Of a DNA stretch of 19,940 nucleotides, positions 2,629 through 19,468 are shown piece by piece (position 1 is the first letter of the stretch; each line of letters begins with the position of its first letter). Origin of the DNA: a bacterium (lineage in GTDB: Bacteria; Zhuqueibacterota; Zhuqueibacteria; Oceanimicrobiales; Oceanimicrobiaceae). The stretch spans positions 1-19,940 of the forward strand of contig JBHHXN010000094.1 in the NCBI GenBank assembly GCA_046757025.1, read 5' to 3'. The notes under the pieces are model-generated. The model was not told the origin of the DNA. It ran no database searches and saw only the letters and a list, made by a program, of their open reading frames with translations. The position numbers and the translations under genes were made by a program.

Positions 2629-4671
2629 TCAACGCAAAAGGATCATCTTTTTAGTTTTCGTAAAAGACTGTGTTTGCAATCTATAGAAATAAACACCCGC
2701 CGGCTGCGGTCGCCCGTGCTCATCGTCGGCATGCCAAACCGCGGATTGATAGCCTGCCGGCTGTCTGGCCTCCACCAGCACCCTAACGCGCTGACCCAGA
2801 ATATTAAATATCTGCAATTTGACGTCGGTTTCTTGCGATACCTGGTATTGGATGATGGTGGTAGGATTGAATGGATTCGGATAATTCTGCAAAAGCGCAA
2901 ATTGTTTGGGAATCGCGGCCACATAGAACAATCCCGGCCCCCGGCCTTGTTGGCCATTTTGATTGGAAATCTGCAGATCGTAAAAGCCGGCAGCGGCGTT
3001 TTCATCGATTGCGATGGTGGCGTTCATCTGGTCGGAACTGGGAACCGAAACCGATTGCACCGTGATTCCCGAACCGCTGAATTTTAGTTCGGCGCCCGCT
3101 TCGAAATGCGCTCCAGAAATTCGGAGATCGACCAGGTCGCCTTGATTGGCGCTGTCTGGCTCCACCGATACCACTGCCAGCGCCTCTGAAGGACGAACGA
3201 AAGTGGAAAGTACGCTCTCTCGCACATACGCACCGCTGTTGGCGGTCTCACCAGAAGCGCGAACTGTGAAAATATAACTGCCGTCAAAAACCGTGTTCGT
3301 AAAATAATTGGCATATACGCCATCGCGGGCCGCCCCATCGAAATGCTGCCCATCGTCATACAGAGGCACGGTGGCGGTCATAAAACCTTCAAATCGATTC
3401 GTATCGGACGATTTGGGCATACCATCCTCAGACGGCCAATCCTCCTCAGCCATCACAGAATTTGAACGAGCTTGAATCGCGGAAGTATTATCAACGGGAA
3501 ATCGTACTTCTGCGCTGACCGAGGCCTGGCTGAGAGGCAAACCGTTTTCTTTTAACACCGCCGTCACCAAAATGGGATCGCCGGCCTCGTATTTAAATTT
3601 GTCCAGAAAAACTTCGATTCGTAAGTCGGAGAATACCTGCACCGTGGAATAATAATTTTCCGGGACCGGTACAACGACCCCAAGCACACGCAGTCCCCAC
3701 AGACCTCGCTCCGGCATTTTTACCGAATAGTATTCGAAGGTGGCGCCTTCGAGATATTGTATGTCTTCAGCCGTTTTTGCGGTTTGCGGAGTGATGATTT
3801 TGCCTTTGGGTGTGATGAGCTCCAAGTCGATATCGCCATGATGATAAACGATGGAAAAAGTGGCAAAGGAAGTCATGCCATCGATTGAAACATAGTGTAG
3901 ATTGGTTTCCCCCTGCGAAATCGTGCCTTGAACGTTGGAAAGAGACTGCTGGCCGGCGATCTGTCCTTTGAGCATCACGTAAATTTGCTGAAGCTCGGCA
4001 GCGGTTGGTGCAAAATTATAGGTCCCGCCGGTGGTCATGGCAATGTGATTCAGCAATTCGCCGTCCACGGTGAATCCTAAACCCACCGTAAAAATATCGG
4101 TGTCTTCTGGAATATTCGGAAGCACATCGGCCACAAACGGCGGCTTGTTTTCTTTGCCGTCGCTCAGCAGCAGCATGGCTTTGCGGCTATCGGCCGCGCC
4201 TTTGTCGAGTTCAATTTGTCCGAATTGAATCCCACTACCGATGGCAGTGGAGCCGGTCGCCACAATGGAGTCGATGGCCATTTGAGCCTGGCTTTTCACA
4301 GTTTCCGACAAAATCGTTTGTAGCGGAAAATCCGTGCTGGCAAAATCGTGAAAACTGACCACACCAATCGCGTCGCCTAATTGCAAAAAGCCCACAAACG
4401 TGGAGGCGGCTATTTTGGCTTCACCAATTTTATCGTCCACGAGCATACTACCTGAACGGTCGATGACAAAAACGATATTGACATTTTCGCCCTGAGCTAA
4501 AACCGAACTCATGGCGCCATCGGCGTAACGCCGGCTCTCCGTATTCACCTGACCAACCAAAGAAATTGGCACCAGGCAAATCATTAAAAATTCAATTAAC
4601 GTGAATTTCTTTCTACGGCCTCGAGATTTTCTTTTTCCCAACAAACACCTTCCACCAGTTTCGATTTTCAT
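2629..4671 (-). CDS. Secreted vWA-domain protein with choice-of-anchor X-like motif, IPT/TIG-like Ig domain and T9SS-type/FlgD-Ig C-terminal domain
   Basis: vWA MIDAS (IVFVIDRSGSM ... GSTAIG ... LLLSDG), 'LYDDGQHFDGAARDGVY' motif, 'VVSVEPDSANQG..V.L.I.G..F' Ig-like strand and C-terminal 'FALLQNYPNPFNPTT...AGVYFYRL...KKMILLR'. Start at ATG 4671 follows GGGGAGGT (4684-4677); ATG 4695 is an alternative. Confidence 0.85.
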   Translation of the reverse strand: MKIETGGRCLLGKRKSRGRRKKFTLIEFLMICLVPISLVGQVNTESRRYADGAMSSVLAQGENVNIVFVIDRSGSMLVDDKIGEAKIAASTFVGFLQLGDAIGVVSFHDFASTDFPLQTILSETVKSQAQMAIDSIVATGSTAIGSGIQFGQIELDKGAADSRKAMLLLSDGKENKPPFVADVLPNIPEDTDIFTVGLGFTVDGELLNHIAMTTGGTYNFAPTAAELQQIYVMLKGQIAGQQSLSNVQGTISQGETNLHYVSIDGMTSFATFSIVYHHGDIDLELITPKGKIITPQTAKTAEDIQYLEGATFEYYSVKMPERGLWGLRVLGVVVPVPENYYSTVQVFSDLRIEVFLDKFKYEAGDPILVTAVLKENGLPLSQASVSAEVRFPVDNTSAIQARSNSVMAEEDWPSEDGMPKSSDTNRFEGFMTATVPLYDDGQHFDGAARDGVYANYFTNTVFDGSYIFTVRASGETANSGAYVRESVLSTFVRPSEALAVVSVEPDSANQGDLVDLRISGAHFEAGAELKFSGSGITVQSVSVPSSDQMNATIAIDENAAAGFYDLQISNQNGQQGRGPGLFYVAAIPKQFALLQNYPNPFNPTTIIQYQVSQETDVKLQIFNILGQRVRVLVEARQPAGYQSAVWHADDEHGRPQPAGVYFYRLQTQSFTKTKKMILLR

Positions 4672-5033
4672 GGATACCTCCCCCATTTTGCTCATGGTTG
4701 ATAAGCACCTCGCTTGAATTGTGTATGTCTTCTGGTCAGCTGTAGGAATGCATCCAGGCCGTACCAGATCATCGACCGTTAAAGCCGCTGTTTGGGCAGG
4801 ATAATTTTACAATCGCATGAAGAATGGATTATCGTCGCCTGCCCTGGCGACCCATCCCAAAACATAAATCGTTTTTTATGAAAAGAACCCCAGCTAATCG
4901 ATTCCGCCCGCCGTGGGCGGAGCTCATTCAAAAGGCCGTGTACTGAAATTTGTCCGTCATCGAGCCTCGTGCGCTCCGATGGCATGGGTCAGTGCTGGTT
5001 CCCGCAGCAATACGTCAAACCGGTGCGGCTAAA

Positions 5034-6272
5034 TCATTTGAGCAGCAGCATACGCCGCACCATCACCAGCTCCTCCAGGCGGATTTCGTAAAGGTACACA
5101 CCGCTGGCCACGATTTCGCCCCGGTCATTGGCGCCATCCCAAAAAATCGCGCTGCCTTCGGTAACGTAACTGCCGCGGCTTTTTTTACCCAGGTCAAACG
5201 TGCGCACCCTCTGCCCCATCTGGTTGTAAATATGAATGATCACCTGACTGTCTTTTTTAAGCTCAAATGGCAGCCAGGTGCCCGGATTGAAAGGATTGGG
5301 GAAATTCTGCAGCAGCGTGCTGGTTGAAGGCAGGAGTGATTCTGCTGGCGGTTCCACGGCGGTGGTAAAATCTCCAATGTCGTAAATTTCTATGCTGCCA
5401 TTATTCATGGCGGTCACCCACAGTCTGCCGCGAGAATCGATGGCCAGATCCATGGGTGCGCGCATTTCGCCCGGTTGCTCCCCGTATTTCCCGATGGCAG
5501 CCAAAAATTCCCCCTCTTCGCTCAACACCGTCACCAATCCCTGGTAGATATCGGCCAAATAAATGCGCCCCCATCGGTCCACGGTGATGCCCTGCACCCG
5601 GCTCAGCTTGCCGAGCTCGTGTCCGTATTTTCCAAATCCCGACTGCCAGATTCCGTTTTTGTCGAACGCGTGGATCATTTTGACGGTCTCTAGATTTTCA
5701 CTGAGGAACAATCCGCCGTGCTCAGCCACCAGTATCCGTTGATTTTTTTTGTCAAACGCAATGCCCGTGGGATAAATCAGTTTTTCCTGACCGAAAGATG
5801 TCACAAACTGACCGCGCTCATCAAATACATGAACACAGTTTTGCTGACTGTCCACTACGTACAACCGATTGTCGTCATCGAAAATCGCGCTGCTCAGCAG
5901 CCCAAAAGGGCCGACATTTTGGCCCATTTTTTTGATGAGCTGACCGTTGACATCCAGAAGGAGCAGCTCGCTCTGCACTCTGTCGCTGACAATCAGACGG
6001 TTTTGCTTATTTACGGCGATGGCCAGCGGAGCCTGGCCGACGGTAAATTCTCCCAGAAACCGGCCCGTGGAATCGAACCGACAAACGCGACTGCCGACGT
6101 CGTCGGTCACGAACACGTTATCGTGCGCATCCATAGTGATGCGCAGCGGACTCTTCAGTCCATCTGAAACACGGAACAAATAGGCGATCTGGTCCGAAGG
6201 ATTCTGCGCCTGTGCCAAGGCCGTGAATAAAAACCAAAAAAGTAATTTGTACAATTGCCGCAATTTTCGCAT
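5034..6272 (-). CDS. Secreted NHL-repeat beta-propeller protein with T9SS-type/FlgD-Ig C-terminal domain
   Basis: NHL blades (PLAIAVN, PTGIAFD, VQGITVD...GRIYLAD, PMDLAID..GRLWV), signal peptide MRKLRQLYKLLFWFLFTALAQA and tail 'LLQNFPNPFNPGT...WDGAND.G..VASGVYLY...RRMLLLK'. ATG 6293 is an alternative start. Confidence 0.88.
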   Translation of the reverse strand: MRKLRQLYKLLFWFLFTALAQAQNPSDQIAYLFRVSDGLKSPLRITMDAHDNVFVTDDVGSRVCRFDSTGRFLGEFTVGQAPLAIAVNKQNRLIVSDRVQSELLLLDVNGQLIKKMGQNVGPFGLLSSAIFDDDNRLYVVDSQQNCVHVFDERGQFVTSFGQEKLIYPTGIAFDKKNQRILVAEHGGLFLSENLETVKMIHAFDKNGIWQSGFGKYGHELGKLSRVQGITVDRWGRIYLADIYQGLVTVLSEEGEFLAAIGKYGEQPGEMRAPMDLAIDSRGRLWVTAMNNGSIEIYDIGDFTTAVEPPAESLLPSTSTLLQNFPNPFNPGTWLPFELKKDSQVIIHIYNQMGQRVRTFDLGKKSRGSYVTEGSAIFWDGANDRGEIVASGVYLYEIRLEELVMVRRMLLLK

Positions 6273-6413
6273 TTTATTATGCCCAAGACACATATTATTT
6301 ATACATTTTATGAGTATGGTTTGAGTAAGAAAAATATAGTAGAATCATTGGGATACTATAATTTCACCTGAGTCGTGCCGGCACAGGAATACGGCCAGGC
6401 AAAAAGCTTAATC

Positions 6414-6591
6414 TAACCTGAATAATTCAAGCTATAAAGTCACAAAGACGCAAAGTATTGTAAACATTGAGTAAAAGAGAATTCAAAAGATTACTTCAAA
6501 AAACTCAGTTCTAAATTCATACTTGTTGTAGGTTATTTATTCTTAGTGACTTAGTGCCTTTGTGGCGAAAGTAAATGAATAATGCAGGTTA
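6414..6591. mobile_element. MITE-like non-coding element (about 178 bp) with terminal and internal inverted repeats
   Basis: TAACCTGAATAATTCA (6414-6429) matches the reverse complement of 6576-6591 (TAACCTGCATTATTCA) at 14/16. Inner IR 6439-6456 vs 6549-6566 matches 14/18. Tandem 8-mers cttagtga/cttagtgc/ctttgtgg at 6542-6565. Confidence 0.6.
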
Positions 6592-6699
6592 AAACAAGGA
6601 CAGGAAGTCAACCCATTTACAAGATGTCGGCCAATGCCCACCGTGGATATCGTTTAGCCAAGTTGGAAGCGCTCGTTGTCAGAATACCGGAAATGAAAA

Positions 6700-6715
6700 A
6701 GCAATTTTTATACCC
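6700..6715 (-). promoter_or_regulatory. Putative sigma-54 (-24/-12) promoter of the leftward operon
   Basis: Minus strand reads GGGTAT-AAAAA-TTGCT: GG-N10-GC spacing with a perfect TTGCW -12 but an imperfect -24. It lies about 150 bp from the palindrome at 6866-6881. Confidence 0.5.
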
Positions 6716-6764
6716 AAAGCAGAATAAAGCAAGCATAAATTGATCGGGTTTCTTTTTCCTATCA

Positions 6765-6777
6765 TAATCCATTGATT
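6765..6777 (-). promoter_or_regulatory. Putative IHF site
   Basis: Minus strand AATCAA-TGGA-TTA matches WATCAANNNNTTR, between the putative sigma-54 promoter and the activator site. Confidence 0.4.
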
Positions 6778-6865
6778 CTATTCAAAATGATAGCAATTTA
6801 TCACCGAACAGGCCCGGAGGGAACAGCGCATGGCGTTTGTGTTGAAGCTCCTAAAAAACGGCAAC

Positions 6866-6881
6866 TGCGCCATTTGGCACA
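6866..6881. promoter_or_regulatory. Putative activator-binding palindrome (UAS)
   Basis: TGCGCCATTTGGCACA; its reverse complement matches TGCGCCAAATGGCGCA (10257-10272) at 15/16. Confidence 0.6.
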
Positions 6882-7025
6882 CCCGCATGGTTTCTCCCCT
6901 TGATTCTATCGGAACTTTTGCCTATCTTCAGAACATACATTTATCCTGACATTTTCATTCAAAAGAGAGCCAAGGTGTTGGGTGTTCAGTCTTTGGAGTT
7001 TTTATGGAAACGCGAAAACGACGTG

Positions 7026-7056
7026 TTTGTCATTCTATAAGAATCTTTTATATTTG
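7026..7056 (+). promoter_or_regulatory. Candidate housekeeping promoter for the two-component genes (Bacteroidota-type -33/-7)
   Basis: TTTG (7026-7029)-N19-TATATTTG (7049-7056) fits TTTG-N19..21-TAnnTTTG. An alternative TTGATT-N17-TATCTT lies at 6900-6928. The AT-rich context makes chance matches possible. Confidence 0.3.
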
Positions 7057-7082
7057 CACGTAAAGTGATATTTATTAAAAAG

Positions 7083-7100
7083 ATCCCGCAAATGCGGGAT
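7083..7100. repeat. REP-like palindrome ATCCCGCA-AA-TGCGGGAT
   Basis: Perfect 8-bp stem followed by GAC; same arms as the hairpins at 19043-19060 and 19469-19488. Confidence 0.55.
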
Positions 7101-7262
7101 GACTATAATGCCGAAATGGGTTTTTGGTTAAATTTCGACTTTTCACACAGCCTCGTTAGGCTACCAGAATACACTGAAGCGTGAACACCGAACGGGCTCT
7201 TCAATACTCCGTTTTTCGATTTTGAGCCTAAAATCCAGGTTTGTGAAGGATCCAAGTTATAA

Positions 7263-8762
7263 ATGACATCAAACCTAATTAGTGAGAACGACATGCTATT
7301 TAAAAAACTGCGTCACCGCATGTTAGCCCACATCATCTGGGTCGTAAGCGTGGTCGTTTTAACGGCGTTCTTTTTTGTGAACAAATTACATCAGCAGTCG
7401 ATGCGGGAGCACTTACAATCGGATGCGGTGAAAATCGCTGAAATGACCGAAAACGTTCTGGTAGAATTGATGCAACATGAAGAGCCTCGGTTGTTGGATG
7501 AATTGTTGCCTGAATTCTCCAGATTACATCACATCAAAAATATACGCATTGTAAATCCGCAAAAAAATGTCGCGTTTTCTTCCAATTCGGAAGAAAAAGG
7601 AAAGATAGTTGATAGAAATGATTTTGTTGAATTTATGCATACGCCGGGATTATCTGCCAATTTCCAAAAGGTAGAAGGTGACAAAACCACCTTTGTGAAA
7701 TGGCGCAAATTGATGAATCGCAGCTTGTGTCAAAGATGCCACGACAAAACCCAACCCTACAACGGCATTTTATGGATTGAGACTTCCGATTCGCTTTCGT
7801 TGAACGTATTGAAATTGAATCATTTCACGCTTGGCGGCATCGCGCTGGGCGTCATCACACTGCTGTCATTGGCCACCGTCATGCTATTTATACGCTCTGT
7901 TGATCGTCCTATTCAAGAGCTACGTGCCGCCATGAATGCCATCGAGCGCGGCGAATTATCGACGCGGATCCATATCACCAGCAAAGATGAGCTTGGACAA
8001 TTAGCCAGCGGTATGAATGCCATGGCAGCCCAATTACAAGAATCCAGACGTCAATTACTGGAGCATCACCGTCAAGAGCTCTCCCAATCTGAAGCCCTGG
8101 CGAAAATCGGTGAACTGGCGGCCGGTTTAGCGCACGAAATCAAGAACCCTATTTCAGGCATTGTTTTTGCTATGAATTCCATCATACGAGAGAGCGATCC
8201 CGATGACCATCGCCAGGAAATTTTCAAGGAGATCGTCAAACAGGCAAATCGAGCGGAACAGAACGTAGAATCGCTGTTGTCGTTTGCACGACAAAGCCGT
8301 CTTGAAAAATTTTCCACAAATCTCAACTCCGTAGTGGAAAGACTGCTTCTGTTTATACAGCGGCAACCGGACATGAGCTCCATCGAAGTCAAAAGCGAAT
8401 TAGACCCCAAGCTTCCGGACGTGATGGTGGATCCCAAACAGATGGAGCAAGTATTGATCAATTTGATCATCAACGCCGTACATGCCATGCCTAACGGGGG
8501 CACGCTAACAATCAAAACGCAACTGGATGCCTCGAAAAAAAAGGTAACCATTTCCATTAAGGACACCGGGGTCGGTATTATGGAATCGTCCAAAGAAAAA
8601 ATCTTCCAACCGTTTTTTACCACCAAAGAAAACGGCGTGGGATTGGGTTTGGCCATGTGCAAGGAAATCATTTCACGACATGCGGGAATTATTTCTTTTG
8701 ATAGCAAATTAGGAAAGGGCACGATTTTTACCATCGAATTGCCCTTAAACAACGAAGTTTAA
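7263..8762 (+). CDS. Membrane sensor histidine kinase (2 TM, periplasmic CxxCH, HAMP, HisKA, HATPase_c)
   Basis: TM1 IIWVVSVVVLTAFFFV; CQRCH (7728-7742); TM2 LGGIALGVITLLSLATVMLFI; HAMP (RPIQEL...DELGQLASGMNAM); H-box LAHEIKNP; N-box QVLINLIINA; DTGVGI, IFQPFFTTK, GVGLGL. ATG 7293 is an alternative start. Confidence 0.95.
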   Translation: MTSNLISENDMLFKKLRHRMLAHIIWVVSVVVLTAFFFVNKLHQQSMREHLQSDAVKIAEMTENVLVELMQHEEPRLLDELLPEFSRLHHIKNIRIVNPQKNVAFSSNSEEKGKIVDRNDFVEFMHTPGLSANFQKVEGDKTTFVKWRKLMNRSLCQRCHDKTQPYNGILWIETSDSLSLNVLKLNHFTLGGIALGVITLLSLATVMLFIRSVDRPIQELRAAMNAIERGELSTRIHITSKDELGQLASGMNAMAAQLQESRRQLLEHHRQELSQSEALAKIGELAAGLAHEIKNPISGIVFAMNSIIRESDPDDHRQEIFKEIVKQANRAEQNVESLLSFARQSRLEKFSTNLNSVVERLLLFIQRQPDMSSIEVKSELDPKLPDVMVDPKQMEQVLINLIINAVHAMPNGGTLTIKTQLDASKKKVTISIKDTGVGIMESSKEKIFQPFFTTKENGVGLGLAMCKEIISRHAGIISFDSKLGKGTIFTIELPLNNEV

Positions 8763-8793
8763 TAAAAGGTTAATCTAATAAATTTAATAAATT

Positions 8794-10164
8794 ATGCGCA
8801 ACAGCGGTATATTAATTATCGATGACGATAAGTTAGTCTCCTGGTCTCTGTCTCGTGACCTAAAAAACGACGGTTATGATATCCAGGTTGCCGGCGACGG
8901 CAAAAGCGGCATTGCAAATGTTCACGATTTAGCACCGGACATCGTCCTGCTCGATTTGAGATTGCCGGATATCGACGGATTGGAGGTGTTGCACAAAATA
9001 AAGCAAGCGTCTCCGGATACCATCGTCATTATGATGACTGCCTATGCAACTGTGGAAACCGCGGTGCAGGCAGTCAAATTGGGTGCCGCCGATTTGATCA
9101 AAAAACCGTTTACCTATGAGGAGCTCAAACTTATCCTTAATCGCGTGATGCAAAGCTATCATTTGAGCCGCGAAGTGTCTGAAATGCGTCACCAGCTCAA
9201 AGAAAAATTCGGCATCAGTAATCTCATCGGCCAATCACCCTGCATGCAGAAATCTTTCGAGCTCATCAAAAAGATCACGCACAGCGACGCCACCACGGTA
9301 CTCATCAACGGCGAAAGCGGCACGGGCAAAGATTTGGTTGCGAAAGCCATCCATTACGACAGTCAACGCTTTCAACATCCGTATCTGACCATGAACTGCG
9401 GTTCCTTGCCGGACACGCTTGTGGAAAGCGAATTGTTCGGACATGAAAAAGGCGCTTTCACGGACGCCAAGACAGCCAAAAGAGGTCTGTTTGAACTGGC
9501 AGACAAAGGCACGGTGCTATTGGATGAAATCGGCGATGCATCTCCGTCTTTTCAGGTTAAACTGCTGCGCTTTATCGAAGAAAAATCCTTCAAAAGAATC
9601 GGCGGCACCAAAAATATCGAAGTGGATGTGCGCATCATTGCTGCCACCAATAAAGATCTGGAAAATTTAGTCAATGAGGGTACCTTTAGAGAGGATTTGT
9701 ATTATCGTCTAAAAGTCATCCCTATCTATCTCACTCCCTTGCGGGAGCGCCTGGAAGACATACCGCTACTGGTTAAATTTTTTATCGATCAGTTGAACAA
9801 AGAATTGAACAAGCAAGTGAAGGGCATTTCTCCGGAAGCGCTTAAAATCTTAAAAAATTACCACTGGCCTGGTAATGTGCGAGAAGTTCGAAACGTGCTG
9901 GAGCGGATCATGATCCTCGAAAGCGGTGACACGATCCTAGCCAGTCACCTGCCCCTGGAGCTCACCGCAAAAAAAACGCCGGTGACGGTGCCCAACAATT
10001 TACAAATTCCGCCCGGCGGCACGGATCTCAGTAACATCGAAAAATCGCTCATCGAGATAGCGTTACAGCGCACGAACGGTAACCAATCTCGCGCAGCAAA
10101 AGTTTTACACATTTCCAGACACGCCCTGCGCTACAAAATGAAAAAACATCATTTGTTGAGCTAA
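8794..10164 (+). CDS. Sigma-54-dependent response regulator, NtrC/AtoC family (REC, AAA+, Fis HTH)
   Basis: Receiver ILIIDDD...VLLDLRLP; Walker A GESGTGKD; ESELFGHEKGAFTDA; Walker B LLDEIG; FREDLYYRL; WPGNVRE; HTH GNQSRAAKVLHISRHALRYKM. Confidence 0.97.
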   Translation: MRNSGILIIDDDKLVSWSLSRDLKNDGYDIQVAGDGKSGIANVHDLAPDIVLLDLRLPDIDGLEVLHKIKQASPDTIVIMMTAYATVETAVQAVKLGAADLIKKPFTYEELKLILNRVMQSYHLSREVSEMRHQLKEKFGISNLIGQSPCMQKSFELIKKITHSDATTVLINGESGTGKDLVAKAIHYDSQRFQHPYLTMNCGSLPDTLVESELFGHEKGAFTDAKTAKRGLFELADKGTVLLDEIGDASPSFQVKLLRFIEEKSFKRIGGTKNIEVDVRIIAATNKDLENLVNEGTFREDLYYRLKVIPIYLTPLRERLEDIPLLVKFFIDQLNKELNKQVKGISPEALKILKNYHWPGNVREVRNVLERIMILESGDTILASHLPLELTAKKTPVTVPNNLQIPPGGTDLSNIEKSLIEIALQRTNGNQSRAAKVLHISRHALRYKMKKHHLLS

Positions 10165-10215
10165 GGTCTCCGTTTATGCCGTTCACCATCCGGGCTGATT
10201 TTGAAATCCGCTCAA

Positions 10216-10276
10216 CACGCCAAATAGCACAAAAGTGCGCCAAATAACACAGCGATTGCGCCAAATGGCGCAATCG
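10216..10276. promoter_or_regulatory. Three tandem activator-binding sites (UAS)
   Basis: CACGCCAAATAGCACA (10216-10231), TGCGCCAAATAACACA (10236-10251), TGCGCCAAATGGCGCA (10257-10272), spaced 20 and 21 bp. The third extends to a perfect 11-bp IR, CGATTGCGCCA-AA-TGGCGCAATCG (10253-10276). Confidence 0.7.
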
Positions 10277-10404
10277 AAACGATTTACCAAGGTCTTTTGC
10301 CAAATTAAGCGATTGTCAAAAATTCTCTGCCTTGATTTTACTTAATTTACCAGCTTCTCTGCTGGCAAATGCCGCGCATTCCCACCTCAAATATTAGTAT
10401 ATTC

Positions 10405-10420
10405 TGGCATCATCGTTGCA
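10405..10420 (+). promoter_or_regulatory. Sigma-54 (-24/-12) promoter of the rightward cytochrome operon
   Basis: TGGCAT-CATCG-TTGCA, near consensus TGGCAC-N5-TTGCW, directly downstream of a sigma-54 activator gene and the UAS array. Confidence 0.8.
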
Positions 10421-10592
10421 TTCCAAAACCGAGTCAAAATCTATTAATATCGGCATGTCGCACTAATTCTTTAATTTTTTTAAATAAAAGATTCATTCAC
10501 ACCAAAATTTGTGCAAAAAGCAGCTTATGTCTCTATTATATATTAGCTCTAAATCAAGGTTTTCATACTTAAAACTAAGTTTACGGGGGAAA

Positions 10593-11744
10593 ATGAAGTC
10601 GAAATTCCCGGTGCTAAGCGCAGTGAGAAAGTTAATCATCGTTTTTATTCTGTTGAATTTATCTGGCTGCGGCGGCACGCGCGGCGGCAATAACACAGCC
10701 AATCCCGAAGACTTTGTCTGGCCGCTCCCACCGGATCCTCCCAAAATTAAATTTGTAAAAAGCATCCATTCGGAAATGGACGTGGGTCACAAACGATCGT
10801 TTGTTCGGCGTATTTATGAAGCCGTATTTGGTCGTGCCCCTTTGCGTGCTCTAAAGAAACCATTAGTAGTGCACACTGACAAATCCGAACGAATCCTGGT
10901 GGTGGATTCAGGCTGGCGCAAAGTTCTGGTTTTTGATTTTGAAAACAACCAACTGGGTGTTTTGGGTAAAAGCGGCCGGGGGCGGTTGCTCAATCCCCTG
11001 GGCGTCACCACCGACGATAACGGGCAGATTTATGTTGCCGACGCCGGCGGGCAACGCATCATGATCTACGATTCCGAGGGCAAATTTTTGCGAGCTTTCG
11101 GCGGCAAGGGCATTTTGGAACGGCCTTCGGGGATAGCCGTCAATCTTAAATTAGGAAAAATCTATGTGGTAGATACCTGGGCACACCAGATAAAAGTATT
11201 TGATATCAACTCCGGCAACGTGTTATTCACCATTGGCAAAAAGGGTGAAAAAACCACCAACAACATCGAAGGCGCTCTGGATTACACCTGGAATCGCGGC
11301 GATGGTCCGGGGGAATTTCGTTTCCCCACCCAGATAACCATCGGTCCGGACGGCAAATTGTACATCGTCGATACACTAAATTTCCGAATTCAGATCATTA
11401 CCGCGCTGGGAGAATTTGTGAACATGTTCGGAGAAGTTGGCAACATACCGGGCACCTTTTATCGGCCCAAAGGGATCGGTTTGGACAGCGAGGGGCACAT
11501 CTATGTATCAGATGCCGCTTTCAATAACATTCAAATATTCGATACGGATGGCAATCTTCTCCTCAACTTCGGTTCGTTCGGTTCGGGTCTTGCCGATTTA
11601 AGACTACCTGCAGGAATGCACATAAATGACATGGATAAAATATTTGTGGTCGATCAATTCAACAATCGAATACAGGTCTATCAATACCTGGGTGGTGAGC
11701 CCAAAAAAGAAAAGGACCTGATAACCGAAAAAGAAAGGAGGTGA
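10593..11744 (+). CDS. NHL-repeat beta-propeller lipoprotein
   Basis: Lipobox LSG|C after a hydrophobic stretch; WPLPPDPPKIKFV segment; repeated blades (PLGVTTD..GQIYVAD, PSGIAVN..KIYVVD, FPTQITI..GKLYIVDT.NFRIQ, PKGIGLD..HIYVSD..NNIQ). ATG 10593 follows GGGGG. Confidence 0.9.
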   Translation: MKSKFPVLSAVRKLIIVFILLNLSGCGGTRGGNNTANPEDFVWPLPPDPPKIKFVKSIHSEMDVGHKRSFVRRIYEAVFGRAPLRALKKPLVVHTDKSERILVVDSGWRKVLVFDFENNQLGVLGKSGRGRLLNPLGVTTDDNGQIYVADAGGQRIMIYDSEGKFLRAFGGKGILERPSGIAVNLKLGKIYVVDTWAHQIKVFDINSGNVLFTIGKKGEKTTNNIEGALDYTWNRGDGPGEFRFPTQITIGPDGKLYIVDTLNFRIQIITALGEFVNMFGEVGNIPGTFYRPKGIGLDSEGHIYVSDAAFNNIQIFDTDGNLLLNFGSFGSGLADLRLPAGMHINDMDKIFVVDQFNNRIQVYQYLGGEPKKEKDLITEKERR

Positions 11745-11750
11745 AAAACC

Positions 11751-12458
11751 ATGAAAAAGTACTTTGTTGTTATGATTGCCTTGATGTTGTTAGTCGGCTT
11801 TGCAGGGCCAAATAGCGTATATGCTCAATTTGGAAACAAAGTAGCAGATACCCCGCACAACATGCGTGAGGCTACCGTTGACGGAATGCCACTGACGGAT
11901 TACGGCGAAATCTGTGTGTATTGTCATACTCCACACAATAACAATCAAGACATCGAAGCGCCGTTGTGGAACCGAGGCACGCCGGCCGGTCCATACAACA
12001 TGTATGACAGCCCAACGTTGGACATGGACATTGCCAGCAGCCCGACCGGTGTTTCCATGGCTTGTTTGTCGTGCCACGACAATACCATCGCGCTGGATCA
12101 GATTGTGAACATTCCTTCGAGTCAATTCGGGGCCAGTTCATCCGGAACCACAATCGAAGCTTGTGCAACCCAGTGCCATATCGGGGATAACCCGGTCGGC
12201 GGTATCAACTTTGAAGGCTCTGTTATCGACACAGACTTGAGGAATGACCACCCGATTTCGGTCACTTACGATCCCAGCAAAGATCCCAAATTCCATGCCG
12301 CATCAAATGGAAAGGTCGGAACTTTGCCGTTGTATGGTGCCCAAAAGAATCTGGTGCAGTGCGCTTCGTGCCACAATCCTCACGACAATTCGAATCGTCC
12401 GTTCTTGCGGATTTCGAACGAAAACAGCGCTCTGTGTCTGACATGCCACGATATTTAA
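11751..12458 (+). CDS. OmcE-family (nanowire-type) multiheme cytochrome c, 4 CxxCH + 1 CxxxCH
   Basis: Signal peptide, strong RBS AAGGAGGT. Motif order TPHN...ICVYCHTPH...PLWNR...SMACLSCHD...TDLRNDHPIS...LPLY...CASCHNPHDN..PFLR...SALCLTCH matches Geobacter OmcE as I recall it. Extra CATQCH at 12162-12179. Confidence 0.85.
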   Translation: MKKYFVVMIALMLLVGFAGPNSVYAQFGNKVADTPHNMREATVDGMPLTDYGEICVYCHTPHNNNQDIEAPLWNRGTPAGPYNMYDSPTLDMDIASSPTGVSMACLSCHDNTIALDQIVNIPSSQFGASSSGTTIEACATQCHIGDNPVGGINFEGSVIDTDLRNDHPISVTYDPSKDPKFHAASNGKVGTLPLYGAQKNLVQCASCHNPHDNSNRPFLRISNENSALCLTCHDI

Positions 12459-12530
12459 GCGGGCAAGTTTCTACTTAAATAACAAAGTGATAATTATTCA
12501 GGATTGACACTAAGGCTCATTAACAATTAC

Positions 12531-12559
12531 GGGGGTGAGAGCTTGCTCGCCCCCTTTTT
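12531..12559 (+). terminator. Intrinsic terminator/stabilising hairpin after the first OmcE-like gene
   Basis: GGGGGTGAG-agcttg-CTCGCCCCC (9-bp stem, one G-U) followed by TTTTT. Confidence 0.75.
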
Positions 12560-12575
12560 ATTTTCAGGGAAAAGG

Positions 12576-13556
12576 ATGTTTGAAACGTATCGACTAACTC
12601 GCAAAACCACTCAGCTTTTGCTCACTCTGGCGCTGTGCGGCACCTTGGATTCCGCTTTGGCGAACAACAAGGTGGTGGCCAAAGTCAATGGCAAGGAAAT
12701 TAATGAAGCTGCTTTGTTCCATGAAATCAACAAAAAACTGCCGCAAACTTCGTTTCACTCGCAGGTTTCACCAGAAAAATTGCAAGAATTCAGAAAAGCG
12801 GCCCTGCAAAAATTAATCGAAGATGAGCTGTTTTTTCAGGCGGCACAAAAACAAAAAATCGCCGTGGAACTGCTCGAAATCGAACAGCAGATCGCTTTCA
12901 TGAAAAAGGGGTATGCCAGCGAAAAAGCGTTTCAACAGGCGATGTCCAAAAGCGGTTACAATGCCCTGAAGTTGATGAAGCGCGTGGAACGGAGTTTAAT
13001 GATCAAAAAGATTCAACAAAAAGAAATTTTCGATCGCGTGACCATCACCGACTCCGAAATACGTGAGTACTACCAAAACAACCAGTCGAAATTTCTTCTA
13101 CCGCAGCAATTCCGCTTGCGGCATATTCTCATTTCCGTTAAACCCGGCGCCATGGCCAAAGGGTGGCAAGCCGGCCTGGAAGAGGCCCAAAAAGTGTATG
13201 AGCGCATTCAAGCCGGAGAAAATTTCGCAGAGCTGGCAGCCGAGGTTTCGGCCGATTCCAGCAGCCGCGAAGCCGGAGGAGATATCGGCTGGTTCCACAA
13301 AGGGCAGCTCATTCCGGAATTGGAGAAAGCCCTTGGTGAAATCCAGATCGGCGACGTCAGTCCACCCGTGCGCTCGATTTATGGCTTTCATCTCATAAAA
13401 TTTGAAGAAGCCAGGCTGGCGAAACAGTTGACATTTGAAGAAATCAATCAAAAAGACTTGAAACAGAAATTGTATAATAAAAAGATCGAATCGCGCAGAC
13501 AGGAATTTTTGTCTGAATTGAAATCTCAAGCCCAAATTCAGATCATGGAACCCTGA
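12576..13556 (+). CDS. Parvulin-type peptidyl-prolyl isomerase/foldase (SurA/PrsA-like)
   Basis: VVAKVNGKEI N-domain; HILI...GENFAELAAEVSAD...GGDIGW...GDVSPPVRSIYGFHLIK rotamase motifs; signal-like LLLTLALCGTLDSALA. ATG 12576 lies after the terminator. Confidence 0.92.
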   Translation: MFETYRLTRKTTQLLLTLALCGTLDSALANNKVVAKVNGKEINEAALFHEINKKLPQTSFHSQVSPEKLQEFRKAALQKLIEDELFFQAAQKQKIAVELLEIEQQIAFMKKGYASEKAFQQAMSKSGYNALKLMKRVERSLMIKKIQQKEIFDRVTITDSEIREYYQNNQSKFLLPQQFRLRHILISVKPGAMAKGWQAGLEEAQKVYERIQAGENFAELAAEVSADSSSREAGGDIGWFHKGQLIPELEKALGEIQIGDVSPPVRSIYGFHLIKFEEARLAKQLTFEEINQKDLKQKLYNKKIESRRQEFLSELKSQAQIQIMEP

Positions 13557-13607
13557 ACAGTTCATTATCGAATTTTCTAATTGCCTGCTGCCACCCTAAC
13601 AACTACC

Positions 13608-14501
13608 ATGTTTTTGAATATTTTAAAAAATCATGCATGTCACCCACTCCGGACAGCAGGAAGGATTTTCTTGATAACGTCGGTCCTTTTTGCCCTGAGC
13701 TGCAGCCGCCAGGCGCGCTTTAAAGCACTAAATTTTTTCTTCGATGGCGTACCGTCACCGGACGCGAAAAGGGCGTCAGCCCAGGCTGACACCCTTGATC
13801 AGTCGCAACGCGCCGGCGAGCTGGCCACCGATTCCACGGCCACCAATGTACCGGTTTATTCTTTTCATCCTATTCTTGAACAAAACGAATGCGCAACCTG
13901 CCACGACCAGCAACAATCCTTTCGGCTTTCTGACTTGCCCGAGGCTTTATGCCTGAACTGTCATGATCAGGCGGAGGAGGTGGTAGTACACGAACCGGTC
14001 GCTTCCGGCATGTGCACGGAATGTCACAACCCTCACGGCAGTCAAGCTCCGCATCTGCTCAAGGAAGTGGAAGAAGATTTGTGTTTTCAATGCCATGATG
14101 AGCAAGAAATTAAACCGCAAACATTCGCGACGCTGCACGCGCCGGTACAGGCAGGGTCTTGTACGGAGTGCCACAATCCACATGGCTCGGCCAATCCGCG
14201 CATGCTGATTGCCGCCCAGGAAATATTGTGCTTCGAATGCCACGCGGAAGCCGACTTCAAACCGGCAGGCGAGGATGCTTTTACGCATGCGCCGGTGGCA
14301 GAAGATCTCTGTCTGGAATGCCACAGTCCGCACTATTCGGAAAGTCCCAAATTGCTGGTAACCGTTGGACAAGCACTCTGTTTTCAATGTCACGATGAAA
14401 ACGATATCACATCGTTGGAAATGCACGACGGCATCGAGGATATGGCGTGCTATGAATGTCACGATCCCCACAAAGGAGACAACGAATTTTATTTGAAGTG
14501 A
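13608..14501 (+). CDS. Nona-heme cytochrome c with doubled-CxxCH repeats, probable lipoprotein
   Basis: 9 CxxCH (CATCH, CLNCH, CTECH, CFQCH, CTECH, CFECH, CLECH, CFQCH, CYECH); three 'H(E/A)PV...CxECHxPH.S...L......LCFxCH' units; ALS|C lipobox followed by FFFDGVP. Exact start uncertain. Confidence 0.88.
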   Translation: MFLNILKNHACHPLRTAGRIFLITSVLFALSCSRQARFKALNFFFDGVPSPDAKRASAQADTLDQSQRAGELATDSTATNVPVYSFHPILEQNECATCHDQQQSFRLSDLPEALCLNCHDQAEEVVVHEPVASGMCTECHNPHGSQAPHLLKEVEEDLCFQCHDEQEIKPQTFATLHAPVQAGSCTECHNPHGSANPRMLIAAQEILCFECHAEADFKPAGEDAFTHAPVAEDLCLECHSPHYSESPKLLVTVGQALCFQCHDENDITSLEMHDGIEDMACYECHDPHKGDNEFYLK

Positions 14502-14506
14502 GATAG

Positions 14507-16477
14507 ATGACGGCTTGCGCAATTAAAAAACGACTTTTGTTTCTGTCCATGGTGATAGGCTTTTTGTCTATCGGTACGGATCCGGTTCCTGGGCAGGAGC
14601 TGGGATTGTTCCGCCTGCGAGGCCTGGGCGGTTCCATGCGCTTTCGCATTCAAAAGGAAAGAAGGGTGGCGCCGGAAATTTCCAACGAACGCACATTGAA
14701 CGCCATACTGGTTTTGCGCAACACCGGCTTCGTCATCAATCCGGAAATTTTAAACTTCAAATGGGCTGGCGATTTGGGCCTCTTTCACGAGCAGTTTACC
14801 GCGGATAATCTGGAGCGCAACAGCAAAGGCCGCTTTTTAGGCCACAATCTCACGGCCCTGTTTTTTCAATCCAGCCCCAATTCGCTGTCGTTCTTCTGGA
14901 ACCGCAGCACCAATTTCATCAATCTCGACGAAACCGGCAGTACTTTCCACAAAATCAATAACCTGCAAGCCACTCTGGAAATGCGGGAGCTGAAGCTGCC
15001 CTCCCGTCTGATGGCACGCTCCCGTGATACAGAAGAAAATTGGGAGCGCGGCGGTTTTAAGGCCAATCAAAATCAACGGCGGCGATCTTTGCATTACGAC
15101 GGTGAAAAAGTAGAAGACGACCGAAATTTCGAGCTGACTTACGACTGGATCGATGTAAAGGATCGCATCCGCAAGTCGGCAAGCTATTACAGCCACATGG
15201 GCAACGTGCGCTATCGAAAAGCTTTCGGTGAAGAACTGGCAAACAAATGGGACAGCAATGTGCGCGTATTCAAACGCAAAGGGCTCAGAAATCTGCTAAA
15301 TATTCGCTCGCGCCAATCGCTGGAAATTCAGCACAAGCCCTCGCTGACTTCACGATACCGCCACTCTTTATCTTTTACCAACTCCGATAACGGCTCCATT
15401 TTTCAGAACACGGGTTCGGCTTCCCTTTCCCATCGACTTTATGCTAGTTTGAACACCAACGCTTCGTTAGGAGGAACTTACAGCCTGTTACAAACCGGCC
15501 GCTCCTACACCTATTCCCTGAGCGGCGGCGTCACCTACACCAAACGCATTCCCCTCTCTGGCCGGTTGCAGATTCTCTACACGCGCGGTTTTTCCATCAA
15601 CGATTTGAATCTCGACCCCACCGAACAGGTGATTGTTAACGAGCGGCATTTTTTGCTGGGATCGCTGCCGGTGCTCCTGAACGAACGCAACATCATCGTT
15701 TCCACGATTATCATTTTTAATGAAGACGGCGATTTTGTTTTTGAGGAAGGGGAAGATAAAGATTACACCCTGCGCATCATTGGCGATCGCATCGAAATTC
15801 ATCGCAATCCCTTTGGTCGAATGCTCGAAAGCAGCGTCATTTTGGTGGACTACCATTTTCAAACGCTGCCTTCCATGCGTTACTCCACCAATACGGAAAT
15901 TTTCAGCGCTGGCGTTAACTTCGGGTGGATTTCATTGAATTACCTGGTGAATCGACATGACCAGAACCTGATCTCCGGGGACGAAGAATCCCTGCCGCAT
16001 TTGCAGGATTTGTTCACCAAAGCCTTGCAATTGAGCTCCACTTTGCGCGGTGAAAGAGCCGGCATGTCGCTTTACGCAGAAAAAAAATTCTACAATTCCA
16101 CATCTATTTCTTTCGATGCCATCGATTTGCGCTACGCTTTTTTCATCATGCCGTTTAGCAGATTTACAATCACCAACAACCTGAGCTATTCCTTTCTCAG
16201 TCACAATCTGGAAAGTCTGGACATCAAATCCTACTCTCTACGCTCAGAACTGCGCTGGCGCCCATCCTATTATTTTACCTTGCATGGTTTTGGTAAGTAC
16301 GATATCCGTGAAGAAACCAGAAGAGCCATCGAAAAAAATTTCGAATACGGAGTGAGCCTGGAACGGCTGTGGCGGGTTTTCAGAGTGCAGTTCAAATTTG
16401 ATAAGCGTCGGTGGGATTTTGGCGAGCGACATTTCAATGAACGGCGCGTTATGGTCGAAGTGGAACGCATTTTTTAA
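14507..16477 (+). CDS. Predicted outer-membrane beta-barrel protein (656 aa)
   Basis: Signal peptide, long runs of alternating amphipathic strands rich in S/T/N/Y/R/G and C-terminal ...VMVEVERIF (terminal Phe, BAM-type). Starts 5 nt after the nona-heme gene. Confidence 0.72.
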   Translation: MTACAIKKRLLFLSMVIGFLSIGTDPVPGQELGLFRLRGLGGSMRFRIQKERRVAPEISNERTLNAILVLRNTGFVINPEILNFKWAGDLGLFHEQFTADNLERNSKGRFLGHNLTALFFQSSPNSLSFFWNRSTNFINLDETGSTFHKINNLQATLEMRELKLPSRLMARSRDTEENWERGGFKANQNQRRRSLHYDGEKVEDDRNFELTYDWIDVKDRIRKSASYYSHMGNVRYRKAFGEELANKWDSNVRVFKRKGLRNLLNIRSRQSLEIQHKPSLTSRYRHSLSFTNSDNGSIFQNTGSASLSHRLYASLNTNASLGGTYSLLQTGRSYTYSLSGGVTYTKRIPLSGRLQILYTRGFSINDLNLDPTEQVIVNERHFLLGSLPVLLNERNIIVSTIIIFNEDGDFVFEEGEDKDYTLRIIGDRIEIHRNPFGRMLESSVILVDYHFQTLPSMRYSTNTEIFSAGVNFGWISLNYLVNRHDQNLISGDEESLPHLQDLFTKALQLSSTLRGERAGMSLYAEKKFYNSTSISFDAIDLRYAFFIMPFSRFTITNNLSYSFLSHNLESLDIKSYSLRSELRWRPSYYFTLHGFGKYDIREETRRAIEKNFEYGVSLERLWRVFRVQFKFDKRRWDFGERHFNERRVMVEVERIF

Positions 16478-16520: not shown

Positions 16521-17234
16521 ATGTCAAAATCCATTTTTTTGATTTTATCCTGTTTTTACGGGCTCATCCATTTTGCAACAATCGGCTACGCACAAAGTGG
16601 CAGCAACGTCGCGGATACGCCGCACAATCTCCGCAAAGCCACACAGGGAGCCATGGCAAAGCTGGGGCTGCCGGACTTCGGCGATGTGTGCATCTACTGC
16701 CATTTGCAGCACGACGAAAATGCCAACCGCCCGTCGCTTACCTGGAATCGACTCTTGCCGGCGACCGTTTACCAGTTGTATGACAATCCCAACTCGAACA
16801 TGGCTGTGTCAGCTACTCCGGACAGCATTTCTTTGGTTTGCCTTTCCTGTCATGACAACAGTATGCCTTTGGCAGCGGTAAAAAAGACACCCGCAGGATA
16901 TAATGGCGAAACCACGTCACATCTCACTATTAGCGCCTGTTCTAATTCTTGTCACACCCCTTCTGAGCCCAGCGGCACTCTAATTTTCAAAGGAGGAAAT
17001 CTCGGCACGGATTTGCGCAATCACCATCCCATCTCGGTTATTTACAATTCGGTTCAAAACTCAAAACTCGTTCCGGCCTCCGGGCGCAACGTGAACGGGC
17101 TGCCGCTCTATGGAAAGAATTTTTCGCAATTAGGCTGCTCAACCTGTCACGACGTTCACGACAATTCCATTCGCCCATTTCTGAGAATTTCATACGAGAA
17201 TGGCGAGCTTTGTTCAGCGTGTCATAAGATTTAA
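16521..17234 (+). CDS. Second OmcE-family multiheme cytochrome c (paralog of 11751-12458), 4 CxxCH + 1 CxxxCH
   Basis: VADTPHNLR...VCIYCHLQH...WNR...SISLVCLSCHDN...CSNSCH (16938-16955)...GTDLRNHHPISV...LPLYG...CSTCHDVHDN..PFLRIS...LCSACH. ATG 16521 gives a signal peptide and removes the overlap with the upstream gene. Confidence 0.85.
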   Translation: MSKSIFLILSCFYGLIHFATIGYAQSGSNVADTPHNLRKATQGAMAKLGLPDFGDVCIYCHLQHDENANRPSLTWNRLLPATVYQLYDNPNSNMAVSATPDSISLVCLSCHDNSMPLAAVKKTPAGYNGETTSHLTISACSNSCHTPSEPSGTLIFKGGNLGTDLRNHHPISVIYNSVQNSKLVPASGRNVNGLPLYGKNFSQLGCSTCHDVHDNSIRPFLRISYENGELCSACHKI

Positions 17235-17373
17235 ACTCGATGCCGACTTGATAGATTTTACGTCTTGTCGCAGACGAGGCTGCGAATGCATAGCTGCCAC
17301 CGTAAAAGAAAAATGAAACCCATAACTTCCGATTGCAGATTTGGGATGGTGGATTTCGGAATGAACATGTAAA

Positions 17374-17624
17374 TAGGGTTCAAACGGAAACACCCTATGT
17401 TGTTATTCTGGGGAGTCCTTCGCCATGCTCAGAGCCACCCAGAGCCTGGCGAAAGGATAAATTCCGCGACGAAAAATCTCATGCAACCCAAATTGTGCGA
17501 AAAAGCCAAAGGGATGAATTTGTGCATAGGGATAGTTCTCTGAACAAATAGACCGTGAAAGAAAAGATACTTCGTCGCGTCGCTCCTCAGAATGACAATA
17601 AACGGAGTTTTCGGTCAAACACTA
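17374..17624. mobile_element. MITE/REP-doublet-like element (about 250 bp) with 41-bp imperfect terminal inverted repeats
   Basis: 17375-17415 matches the reverse complement of 17583-17623 at 30/41. Inner ends carry REP-like GTTATTCTG.../...CAGAATGAC arms. Confidence 0.55.
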
Positions 17625-17673
17625 ACTAAAGAATATCGTGAAAAAATACGTGCTAAGTTGCATGCAGATGTTC

Positions 17674-17734: not shown

Positions 17735-18490
17735 TTAGTGATTATTTTGTTTTGAATCAACGATTTTTTGTTCTTTGACTTTTAAATTTTTCAATCGATA
17801 ACTTTTACCAGTAATTTTCAAAAAGTGAATATTTTCTAAAAAACGGTCGAGGATAGCCGATGCAGTGGCATTGTCGCCGAATATTTTACCCCAGTCTTCA
17901 ATTGGACAATTAGTGGCAATGATAGTCGACGCTTTTTGATAGCGTCGATGAATAATTTCTAACAGGATTTCATTCGCTGCCTGCGACAAGTTTTTCATGC
18001 CCAATTCATCGATCACGAGCAGTTGGGGTTTGAGAAAGGTCTCGATGAGCTGATTCTGAAATTGGATGATTTCTGATGCGACATCAAAGGTGGAACGATA
18101 CAAGACCGTAAAGCCTTTTTGGATGGCCTCGATGCCAAAGGCGACTGCCAGGTGCGTCTTGCCGACGCCGGGCGGCCCAATCATTAAGATATTCTCGAAG
18201 TTAGCGATGAAAGCGGAGGTGGCGAGTTTTTTGATTTGTTGTTTGTTGACAGAGAGATTGAAGCTGAAATCAAAGTCTGCTACCGTTTTCAAAAAAGGAA
18301 ATTTTGCCTGTTTCATCCTGCGGTTCAGTAAACGCTCTTGCCGGATCTCGAGTTCATCCTCGATAAGGTTATCAAGGAATTCCAGGTAGGGCAGTTCATT
18401 GGCCTCTGCCTCCTGCAAGCGGATGTTGAGTTTATGCGTCATGCCGGACAGCCTGACAGATTTGAGTTTATAGAATAATTCTTCCATCAT
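17735..18490 (-). CDS. istB: IS21-family helper AAA+ ATPase IstB
   Basis: KTVADFDFSF; Walker A GPPGVGKTHLA; Walker B LLVIDELG; AILDR; ITGKSYR. Overlaps the istA stop (ATGA). Confidence 0.95.
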   Translation of the reverse strand: MMEELFYKLKSVRLSGMTHKLNIRLQEAEANELPYLEFLDNLIEDELEIRQERLLNRRMKQAKFPFLKTVADFDFSFNLSVNKQQIKKLATSAFIANFENILMIGPPGVGKTHLAVAFGIEAIQKGFTVLYRSTFDVASEIIQFQNQLIETFLKPQLLVIDELGMKNLSQAANEILLEIIHRRYQKASTIIATNCPIEDWGKIFGDNATASAILDRFLENIHFLKITGKSYRLKNLKVKEQKIVDSKQNNH

Positions 18491-19042
18491 TGACCTCCAG
18501 GGAAAAGAGATTGATACTCATCAGGCGAGCGAATAAGGTCACTTTCCTGGGTGAATTGAATTTCTTGTTGGATTTGGTTTTGAATCTGGATGGATTCTGC
18601 GTGTTTTTTAACAAGGTGGTAGCTGAAAACATGACTTTCAATACACCTTTGACAGGCCAGATTAATGATTGCATGCGGATAGGTTTTGGCCAGCGCGACC
18701 ACGCCTTGAATCGCACGATAAGCTCTTTGCTGACGCTCACTTTCCGCTAATTTCGCCCATTTAAGCACCGCGGGCCCGATTTGATTACACTGGTCAAAAA
18801 GAAATTGAGCGTATCGGTTTTGGGTCCAGGTTTTATGTTCCGGCAAGCAACTTTTATCTGGGTGGAACCGACCTTTCTGCACTGTCGATAAGAACTGAAT
18901 CAGTTCATCTTGATAATAGACTTTGACCCATTGGCTGTTATAATGGACGGTGACGCGTCGGCCCATATATTTGGGCGGTACTGGATAAAAGGCGCCGGAG
19001 ATTTCGACATGACTGTCGATGGGATTCACCTTGCGTGTGCCG

Positions 19043-19060
19043 ATCCCGAAGTTTCGGGAC
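19043..19060. repeat. Palindrome ATCCCGAA-GT-TTCGGGAC inside istA (frame preserved, encodes SRNFGI)
   Basis: 7-bp perfect stem (19044-19050/19053-19059) with the same arms as the 7083 and 19469 copies. Confidence 0.55.
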
Positions 19061-19468
19061 AGTAAAGGGCTTGGCGGTAGCGGCTGCAGGAGCGGTTTTT
19101 CTTCTCGAAACATGACGTTTACCTGTCGTTTGGTGGTGCCATGAATGCGAGTTGCGGCCCAGGTTTGATTCCAGTGCCTCAGATAGCGATTTTGCGCCTC
19201 TAAGGAGTCGAATGTTTTGCCGGTCAGCGCATTGTTCTGCACGTATTTGACGGCGCTTTCGACTTTGCCTTTGTGCTCGGGGGTTCGGACTTTACACGGC
19301 AGGGGCACAAAGTTATGGTGATGGGCGAAGGCGAGGTAATTGGGGTTCAGCTCTGGTTCATATATGTGGGCTTGCAGGACTCCTGATTTCAGATTGTCGA
19401 GTTTGACCACTTTGGGGACGCCACCGAAGTAGTCGAAAGCTTTCTGGTGACAGGCAATGAAGGTTTCT

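Follow-up and report, generated by a model that had tools for sequence, protein, structure and literature searches.

A probable palindromic operator and its putative sigma-54 activator at an OmcE-type cytochrome locus

The window analysed here is a 19,940-nt stretch of contig JBHHXN010000094.1 from a bacterium of the Zhuqueibacterota. It carries a sensor kinase gene and the gene of a sigma-54 response regulator (8794-10164, plus strand), flanked by a rightward operon of OmcE-type cytochromes and a leftward arm of secreted proteins and a giant cytochrome. Short palindromes lie on both sides of the kinase-regulator pair. We propose that these palindromes are upstream activator sites (UASs) of the neighbouring regulator, driving the right OmcE operon and, more weakly, the left arm, and on comparative grounds we assign this reading a probability of about 0.8. 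The arrangement of sites and promoters is itself real and conserved and, judging from related genomes, probably functional. An earlier note, made from the letters of this DNA, had proposed the core of this reading, and comparison supports it, as motif, spacing, both promoters and the adjacent activator are conserved together. Every element position given there, for cores, palindromes, promoter elements and a consensus for integration host factor (IHF), was verified.

In the mechanism that we envisage, a periplasmic c-type haem of the kinase would sense the redox state, or nitric oxide (NO) or carbon monoxide (CO), and the kinase would phosphorylate the receiver of the activator. Activator dimers would then bind TGYGY-N-AWWT-N-RCRCA, as a pair two turns apart on the right and singly on the left, and oligomerise; a loop in the DNA would bring them to the sigma-54 polymerase, 165-185 bp away. 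The rightward OmcE-type nanowire operon would be switched on from 10405-10420, and the leftward secreted-cytochrome arm, more weakly, from 6700-6715. Most relatives would have positive feedback as well, with the kinase-activator genes also under the left site.

The proposed operator and its promoters

Three CGCCAAAT cores at 10218, 10238 and 10259, spaced by 20 and 21 bp, mark the right-hand side. The corresponding 16-bp sites begin at 10216, 10236 and 10257; their starts lie 190, 170 and 149 bp, and their ends 175, 155 and 134 bp, before the GG at 10406 of a canonical sigma-54 -24/-12 element, TGGCAT-N5-TTGCA (10405-10420, plus strand). Counting the C of GC as -12 predicts transcription starts at 10431 on the plus strand and, for the left element described below, at 6689 on the minus strand. 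The proximal right site (10257-10272), a predicted UAS, is a perfect palindrome and the only exact TGCGCCA-N2-TGGCGCA in the genome; the second (10236-10251), 21 bp upstream, departs from it at three positions, and the third (10216-10231) at four. Scores were taken from a matrix with a maximum of 25.2 bits, built on 19 sites from seven relatives; these are the seven of 40 that have the kinase orthologue (E below 1e-130), and their contigs, up to the point where they end, preserve the gene order around it. The three right sites reach 23.9, 21.3 and 12.0 bits, and the left site (6866-6881), also a predicted UAS, reaches 23.5 bits; the ranking in the genome is 10257 first, 6866 second and 10236 third.

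The matrix refines the motif to TGYGY-N-AWWT-N-RCRCA, which is wider than the TGCGCCA-N2-TGGCGCA of the earlier note. Variation among sites is symmetric: C/T at positions 3 and 5 corresponds to G/A at positions 14 and 12. Across the 5.96-Mb genome, a motif scan finds one exact copy of the original palindrome and two within one mismatch, all inside the window, while the CGCCAAAT core has 488 copies that cluster within 45 bp only at the right sites. When each intergenic region was shuffled 300 times with dinucleotides preserved, no shuffle attained the observed matrix score. No other site pair in this genome exceeds 17.3 summed bits, and the runner-up sites on C14 (20.3 bits), C267 (18.8) and C5 (17.8), the three inspected of 86 sites scoring at least 13 bits, are single, with no sigma-54 element in the surrounding 2.4-4 kb. 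Additionally, among the blastn matches listed (70 of 107), none falls in 6594-6927, and 10150-10620 has none.

The arrangement extends beyond this genome. Among 125 genomes of the class, 12 carry a full-length activator orthologue (E below 1e-230), and in a 13th it is truncated by the end of the contig. All 12 loci have a site pair 20-22 bp apart (21 bp in 10, 20 bp in one and 22 bp in one), with the nearer site 146-168 bp before YGGCAY-N5-TTGC; loci L026, L028, L030 and L031 are among them and lie outside the matrix training set. A sigma-54 promoter with UASs is taken here as a conserved -24 GG/-12 GC preceded at 80-200 bp by palindromic sites, and this is what the right promoter presents in 12 of 12 loci. 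The strict tandem pattern occurs in nine of the 125 genomes, all among the 13 with an orthologue and none among the remaining 112, and the reversed pattern, used as a control, has no match in any of the 125. The earlier note had read three phased sites on the right against one on the left; the three cores do stand in phase, but the third site is weak, and none of the 11 relatives has a third in-phase site of at least 7 bits. What is conserved is therefore an unequal arrangement, with two strong sites and a canonical promoter on the right, and a single strong site and a non-canonical promoter on the left, which makes different activation thresholds for the two arms plausible.

The left site lies outside repeats and matches 10257-10272 at 15 of 16 positions when read on the minus strand. 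A GG-N10-GC on the minus strand has its GG (6714/6713) at a distance of 152-167 bp from the site, in line with the distance of about 150 bp first noted. The left site scores at least 18 bits in all 10 loci with the region assembled, two further contigs ending short of it, so conservation upstream of orthologous clusters, a check that the earlier note had proposed, is found on both sides. The left element itself, GGGTAT-N5-TTGCT (6700-6715, minus strand), is non-canonical: GG and TTGC are retained, and GGGTAT stands where the canonical sequence is TGGCAC. Because it is weak by its own score, the case for it is made by conservation. In nine of the 10 loci, an RGGWAY-N5-TTGC points leftward; eight of them have it 164-169 bp from a site, which in two of the eight is a weaker second site. 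Genome-wide, RGGTAT-N5-TTGC, which has the sigma-54 spacing, is over-represented, with 24 occurrences against 12 for N4 and 9 for N6. If the right arm is controlled as proposed, control of the left arm is likely.

The alternative that survives best confines the activator to the right arm. The left site would then serve autoregulation of the kinase-activator genes, persisting in the window as a relic after insertions, and the left GG-N10-GC would be weak, silent or the element of another activator. In seven of nine relatives, RGGCAY-N5-TTG[CT] indeed points at the kinase-activator genes from about 45-50 bp upstream of the kinase start; this is a third, autoregulatory element that had been missed at first. 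Several further observations weigh against control of the left arm: a matrix of canonical relatives gives the window's left element only 2.2 bits, a score that 22,187 positions of the genome also reach; a multi-copy miniature insert (6417-6588, 14 other copies) occupies the predicted left-arm leader; G004 keeps the left site with a different left neighbour and no left element; and in L028 the left element is 293 bp from the site. They are set against the conserved position of the left element and the enrichment of its class at the sigma-54 spacing. In addition, no kinase-directed element is found in the window, L028 or L030, and all three keep the left site at 21.6-23.5 bits, which is the best argument for its role in the left arm. 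We therefore consider restriction to the right arm unlikely.

Since the third element is present in most relatives, the ancestral design was likely one of three promoters with positive feedback, and the window genome appears to have lost the kinase-directed one. This bears on the former claim of a single 17-kb regulon, which finds no support: the kinase-activator operon of 2.9 kb is without a sigma-54 element in the window, and downstream of omcE there is a conserved hairpin and T-run. In the spacer that separates the left site from the kinase gene, at the position of the kinase element, lies an outer multi-copy miniature insert (6945-7256, nine other copies, ends placed by inspection), with a second multi-copy insert nested in it (6996-7154, 29 hits on 26 contigs); these left-spacer inserts had also escaped the first reading. 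The insertion may have destroyed the element or may have arrived after its loss, either order being possible. The window stretch is present in four DNA runs, all vent metagenomes from one study, and no insert-free allele of the locus is found among the pieces listed from them. CCTGAAT-type ends are shared by two of the inserts, and the nested one has ends of GAG-CTGTGTGAAAA type. A palindrome at 7083-7100 was rejected as an operator, being part of a multi-copy insert (5 exact copies, 38 within two mismatches).

The looping that we propose does not appear to involve IHF. As the earlier note had it, an exact consensus is present at 6765-6777 (minus strand), and the window has no other, though about 3% of shuffles yield such a consensus and the site is not conserved. 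On the left, WATCAA-N4-TTR is exact in one of seven loci (the window, none of six relatives) and within one mismatch in three of seven, with 2.5 expected; on the right it is exact in none of 12 loci and within one mismatch in three, with 3.1 expected. IHF-assisted looping was rejected on this lack of conservation and on one-mismatch matches at chance on both sides. The genome holds two HU/IHF-family genes, whose best matches are IHF alpha and beta, below cut-offs.

The activator and its match to the motif

The regulator at 8794-10164 has the domains of a sigma-54 enhancer-binding response regulator: a receiver (PF00072), AAA+ (PF00158, E 2e-68) and a Fis helix-turn-helix (PF02954), all over cut-off. 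It misses the AtoC, NtrC and ZraR equivalog cut-offs (494 against 714 for AtoC, 445 against 559 for NtrC). Its loop reads GAFTDA, a variant of the GAFTGA type, and is invariant in eight of eight aligned sequences and in all 28 close homologues; orthologues are 63-75% identical among the seven aligned. The genome encodes 46 sigma-54 activators and one copy of RpoN, on contig C61; it also has 35 open reading frames (ORFs) with at least four CXXCH, many of them on contig C12.

The recognition helix, SRHALRYK, is carried by no other of the 46 activators, and SRH[AT]LRYK is found in eight of eight aligned orthologues. Where haem-kinase/activator pairs have other helices (L151, L153, L154), the site is absent or is changed at 10-11.5 bits. 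Within the 79 omcE-family loci, eight from Gemmatimonadota with a different activator yield a single site of at least 14 bits, and this is intragenic. L092 and L066 are unclean negative controls, as they keep degenerate sites of 11.5 bits. L092 (G021 C17) is a natural regulator swap: the omcE operon is the same (76% subunit identity), but its haem kinase and activator are different ones, joined by a stand-alone receiver, and the promoter element has a degenerate TGCG-N8-CGCA 143 bp upstream of it. In L154 (G058), a related activator with helix SRDSLRYK is followed by a variant palindrome, TGGGT-N6-ACCCA (2884-2899), and a cytochrome gene.

From these patterns we infer binding by the adjacent regulator, and they speak against the next alternative, in which another factor, one of the 45 other activators or a repressor, occupies the sites and the adjacent regulator acts elsewhere. 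The large number of activators in the genome leaves room for such a factor, the site pair of G108 and G109 has no promoter, and a co-localised activator that failed to bind is on record in excerpts of PMC4641369. The motif, on the other hand, follows the orthologue over 125 genomes and alters where the helix alters, and no further regulator gene is found among the scanned ORFs of the window. We consider it quite improbable that another factor is responsible. Still less credible is the view of the palindrome as a dispersed repeat or terminator hairpin: 10253-10276 was called as a minus-strand hairpin, and the genome and left spacer do carry multi-copy palindromic inserts, but this idea, together with the objection of a high-copy repeat, is already largely refuted by copy number (two copies in 5.96 Mb, both outside repeats), by a unique right spacer, and by phasing, since many relatives' sites are imperfect palindromes at a fixed 21-bp phase that a hairpin would not need.

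Other observations fit the proposed control of both arms by the adjacent activator less well. Two of the nine strict-tandem genomes, G108 and G109, have their pairs away from the omcE cluster, as a strong 22-bp pair (L136 1790-1827 and L138 5726-5763) with a small ferredoxin-like gene about 30-40 bp downstream and no sigma-54 element in between; this is a counter-example that the proposal does not account for. An adenosine deaminase gene and a ccmF-like gene lie 5' of the pair, which is possibly a repression site. A second omcE-like cluster in G012 (L119 3065-3101, contig C7) has its own 21-bp site pair, and the closest matching sigma-54 element there is about 800 bp downstream. The motif is shared beyond the SRH[AT]LRYK helix, because strong single sites are found in Nitrospirota loci where the closest activators have [ST]RDALRYR. 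The matrix is partly circular, because the sites of the relatives were first located with the window's own motif, and related genomes share ancestry and are not independent samples. The assignment of the kinase sensor, detailed below, comes from weak matches (E of 0.001 and 0.02, with PF21563 below cut-off). Finally, the nanowire function of OmcE is itself disputed, according to excerpts of PMC13194489.

In a Nitrospirota locus (L070/L135), a strong single site precedes a sigma-54 element and an omcE-like gene, and the closest activator helix is TRDALRYR; a sister activator clade may thus read a related operator. Of the extra strict single matches in relatives, the 14 inspected are mostly lone, without a nearby element, and several are intragenic, with exceptions on G012 C7 and G041 C12. 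A strong site in L063 precedes a non-cytochrome gene.

The N10 geometry of the window motif recalls the NifA site, TGT-N10-ACA. NtrC/AtoC-type activators, such as the Desulfovibrio vulgaris set described in excerpts of PMC4641369, have the same receiver, AAA+ and Fis helix-turn-helix, a palindrome upstream of GG-N10-GC, a gene beside their targets, and a small regulon. In that set, co-localisation of activator and target with one to four operons is usual, and the TGT...ACA half-site motifs have spacers of 9, 11 or 12 bp (PMC4641369). The window differs from it in its TGY-N10-RCA spacing with fixed inner GY/RC and AWWT, and in its GAFTDA loop.

The sensor kinase and the target genes

The kinase gene (7293-8762, plus strand, ORF from 7263) encodes a sensor histidine kinase with HAMP, HisKA and HATPase domains by Pfam and a periplasmic CXXCH in a putative c-haem PAS-like region, a sensor class in which that motif is expected between two transmembrane helices. 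C146, C149 and H150 of this motif, as well as M60, are invariant in six of six aligned sequences. Against PF21563 the sensor scores 18-20 bits, with a cut-off of 27 and one homologue at 26.7, and against 3B42 it gives E 0.001; DUF3365 has no match in it. The N-x-x-C-x-x-C-H segment of the c-haem sensor domains of GSU0935 and GSU0582 (3B42, 3B47) aligns to the kinase sensor. In these proteins, excerpts of PMC8396549 describe His/Met switches that are linked to redox and can bind NO and CO too. The invariant Met of the kinase falls at about the position of the redox-switched Met60 of GSU0935, and a match of a longer profile began at that column. The similarity is weak, and the window sensor is joined to a histidine kinase, whereas those of GSU0935 and GSU0582 are joined to a chemoreceptor. 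By this comparison, redox appears the somewhat better candidate for the signal, with NO/CO gas sensing as its rival.

GSU2915/2916 was considered as a closer parallel and set aside, GSU2916 being named in the literature found only as a haem-bearing two-component protein. In the omcS cluster of Geobacter sulfurreducens, excerpts of PMC10599522 and PMC11077965 number a kinase and a sigma-54 response regulator, GSU2507 and GSU2506, beside a filament-cytochrome gene, as in the window. GSU2507 is there a Cache_1/HAMP protein and GSU2506 contains PAS, sensor domains other than that of the window kinase, and those excerpts give no binding site.

The right arm (all plus strand) opens with an NHL beta-propeller lipoprotein (10593-11744, ORF from 10509; PF01436, lipobox LSGC) and an OmcE-type cytochrome (11751-12458) with four CXXCH and an invariant CX3CH, matching 9YUQ at E 1e-24 and 7TFS at E 7e-24. 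A GC-rich hairpin with a T-run follows (12531-12554), and a related GGGG-TG hairpin is found in nine of 12 loci by fold inspection; its place after omcE suggests a step-down, fitting an excess of subunit over helpers. Next are a SurA/PPIC-type peptidyl-prolyl isomerase (PPIase; 12504-13556, likely start 12576; Pfam) and a multihaem cytochrome with nine CXXCH, of the doubled-CXXCH kind by profile matches (13581-14501). The 656-aa conserved protein after it (14507-16477) is likely an outer-membrane beta-barrel, judging from context; it has no Pfam or NCBIfam match, and its look-alikes in the Atlas are unnamed, with Porin_4 on 33% of one cluster at a score of 0.89. The second OmcE-type cytochrome (16521-17234, ORF from 16398) is 44% identical to the first and keeps the CX3CH. 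Among the OmcE-type copies, CX3CH as well as the four distal His, H36, H62, H167 and H211, are invariant in eight of eight aligned sequences, so the CX3CH of both paralogues is a candidate fifth haem site, with no obvious conserved distal His. An AlphaFold2 model of the OmcE-like protein without haem has a pLDDT (predicted local distance difference test) of 33. Dispersed repeats (17259-17630) and an IS21-type element (17735-19940; IstB, transposase) close the right arm, and the transposase reading frame appears split (18487-19482 and 19638 to the end). Rfam has no match in the window, and sigma-70 and terminator scans were overall at chance level.

The left arm (all minus strand) encodes an NHL protein with a C-terminal FlgD-Ig domain (5034-6293; Pfam), a VWA protein with a C-terminal sorting domain of the type IX secretion system kind (2629-4695; PF18962 and TIGR04183 over cut-off), and a multihaem cytochrome with 21 CXXCH by profile matches and motif count (48-2513). 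The left promoter of L018 and L023 is followed first by a gene for a small tetrahaem cytochrome (7145-7723 and 990-1556, respectively). Its closest homologue in the window genome (49%) lies in a large multihaem cluster (G000 C12:19333-19890), with no strong site among those listed.

The OmcE clusters of G. sulfurreducens (7TFS) and Desulfuromonas soudanensis (9YUQ), as given in excerpts of PMC13712944, share with the window an OmcE with four CXXCH and four conserved His, a beta-propeller lipoprotein, a multihaem partner and a large putative barrel. The right arm fits the cluster definition in those excerpts except for the barrel, which is without a family assignment. The window differs in its extra invariant CX3CH, its two OmcE paralogues, the PPIase, and the dedicated haem kinase and activator. 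Its relatives are labelled KSB1/Calditrichaeota, which is not among the five OmcE phyla of PMC13712944, whose main text has no occurrence of KSB1.

Significance of the locus

The mechanism is a textbook one; the proposed operator and its target are new. No operator for an OmcE cluster was found in literature searches, in which the motif string itself was not searched. As a tentative and somewhat doubtful extension, five-haem OmcE-type nanowires could here have a switch of their own that senses through haem and amplifies itself, and this in bacteria of the KSB1 type, which are not known to make nanowires. One activator would tie the redox state of the periplasm to a filament subunit with an additional CX3CH haem, to its assembly genes, and to a second arm of surface-sorted proteins and a giant cytochrome, with a Nitrospirota sister clade on a related operator.

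The control of when cells build cytochrome filaments is poorly defined, and this locus offers a concrete set of predicted sensor, activator, operator and promoter, which can be rebuilt in a laboratory host. The operator is also a DNA tag for co-regulated cytochrome clusters in uncultured lineages, and it has already flagged the second cluster in G012.

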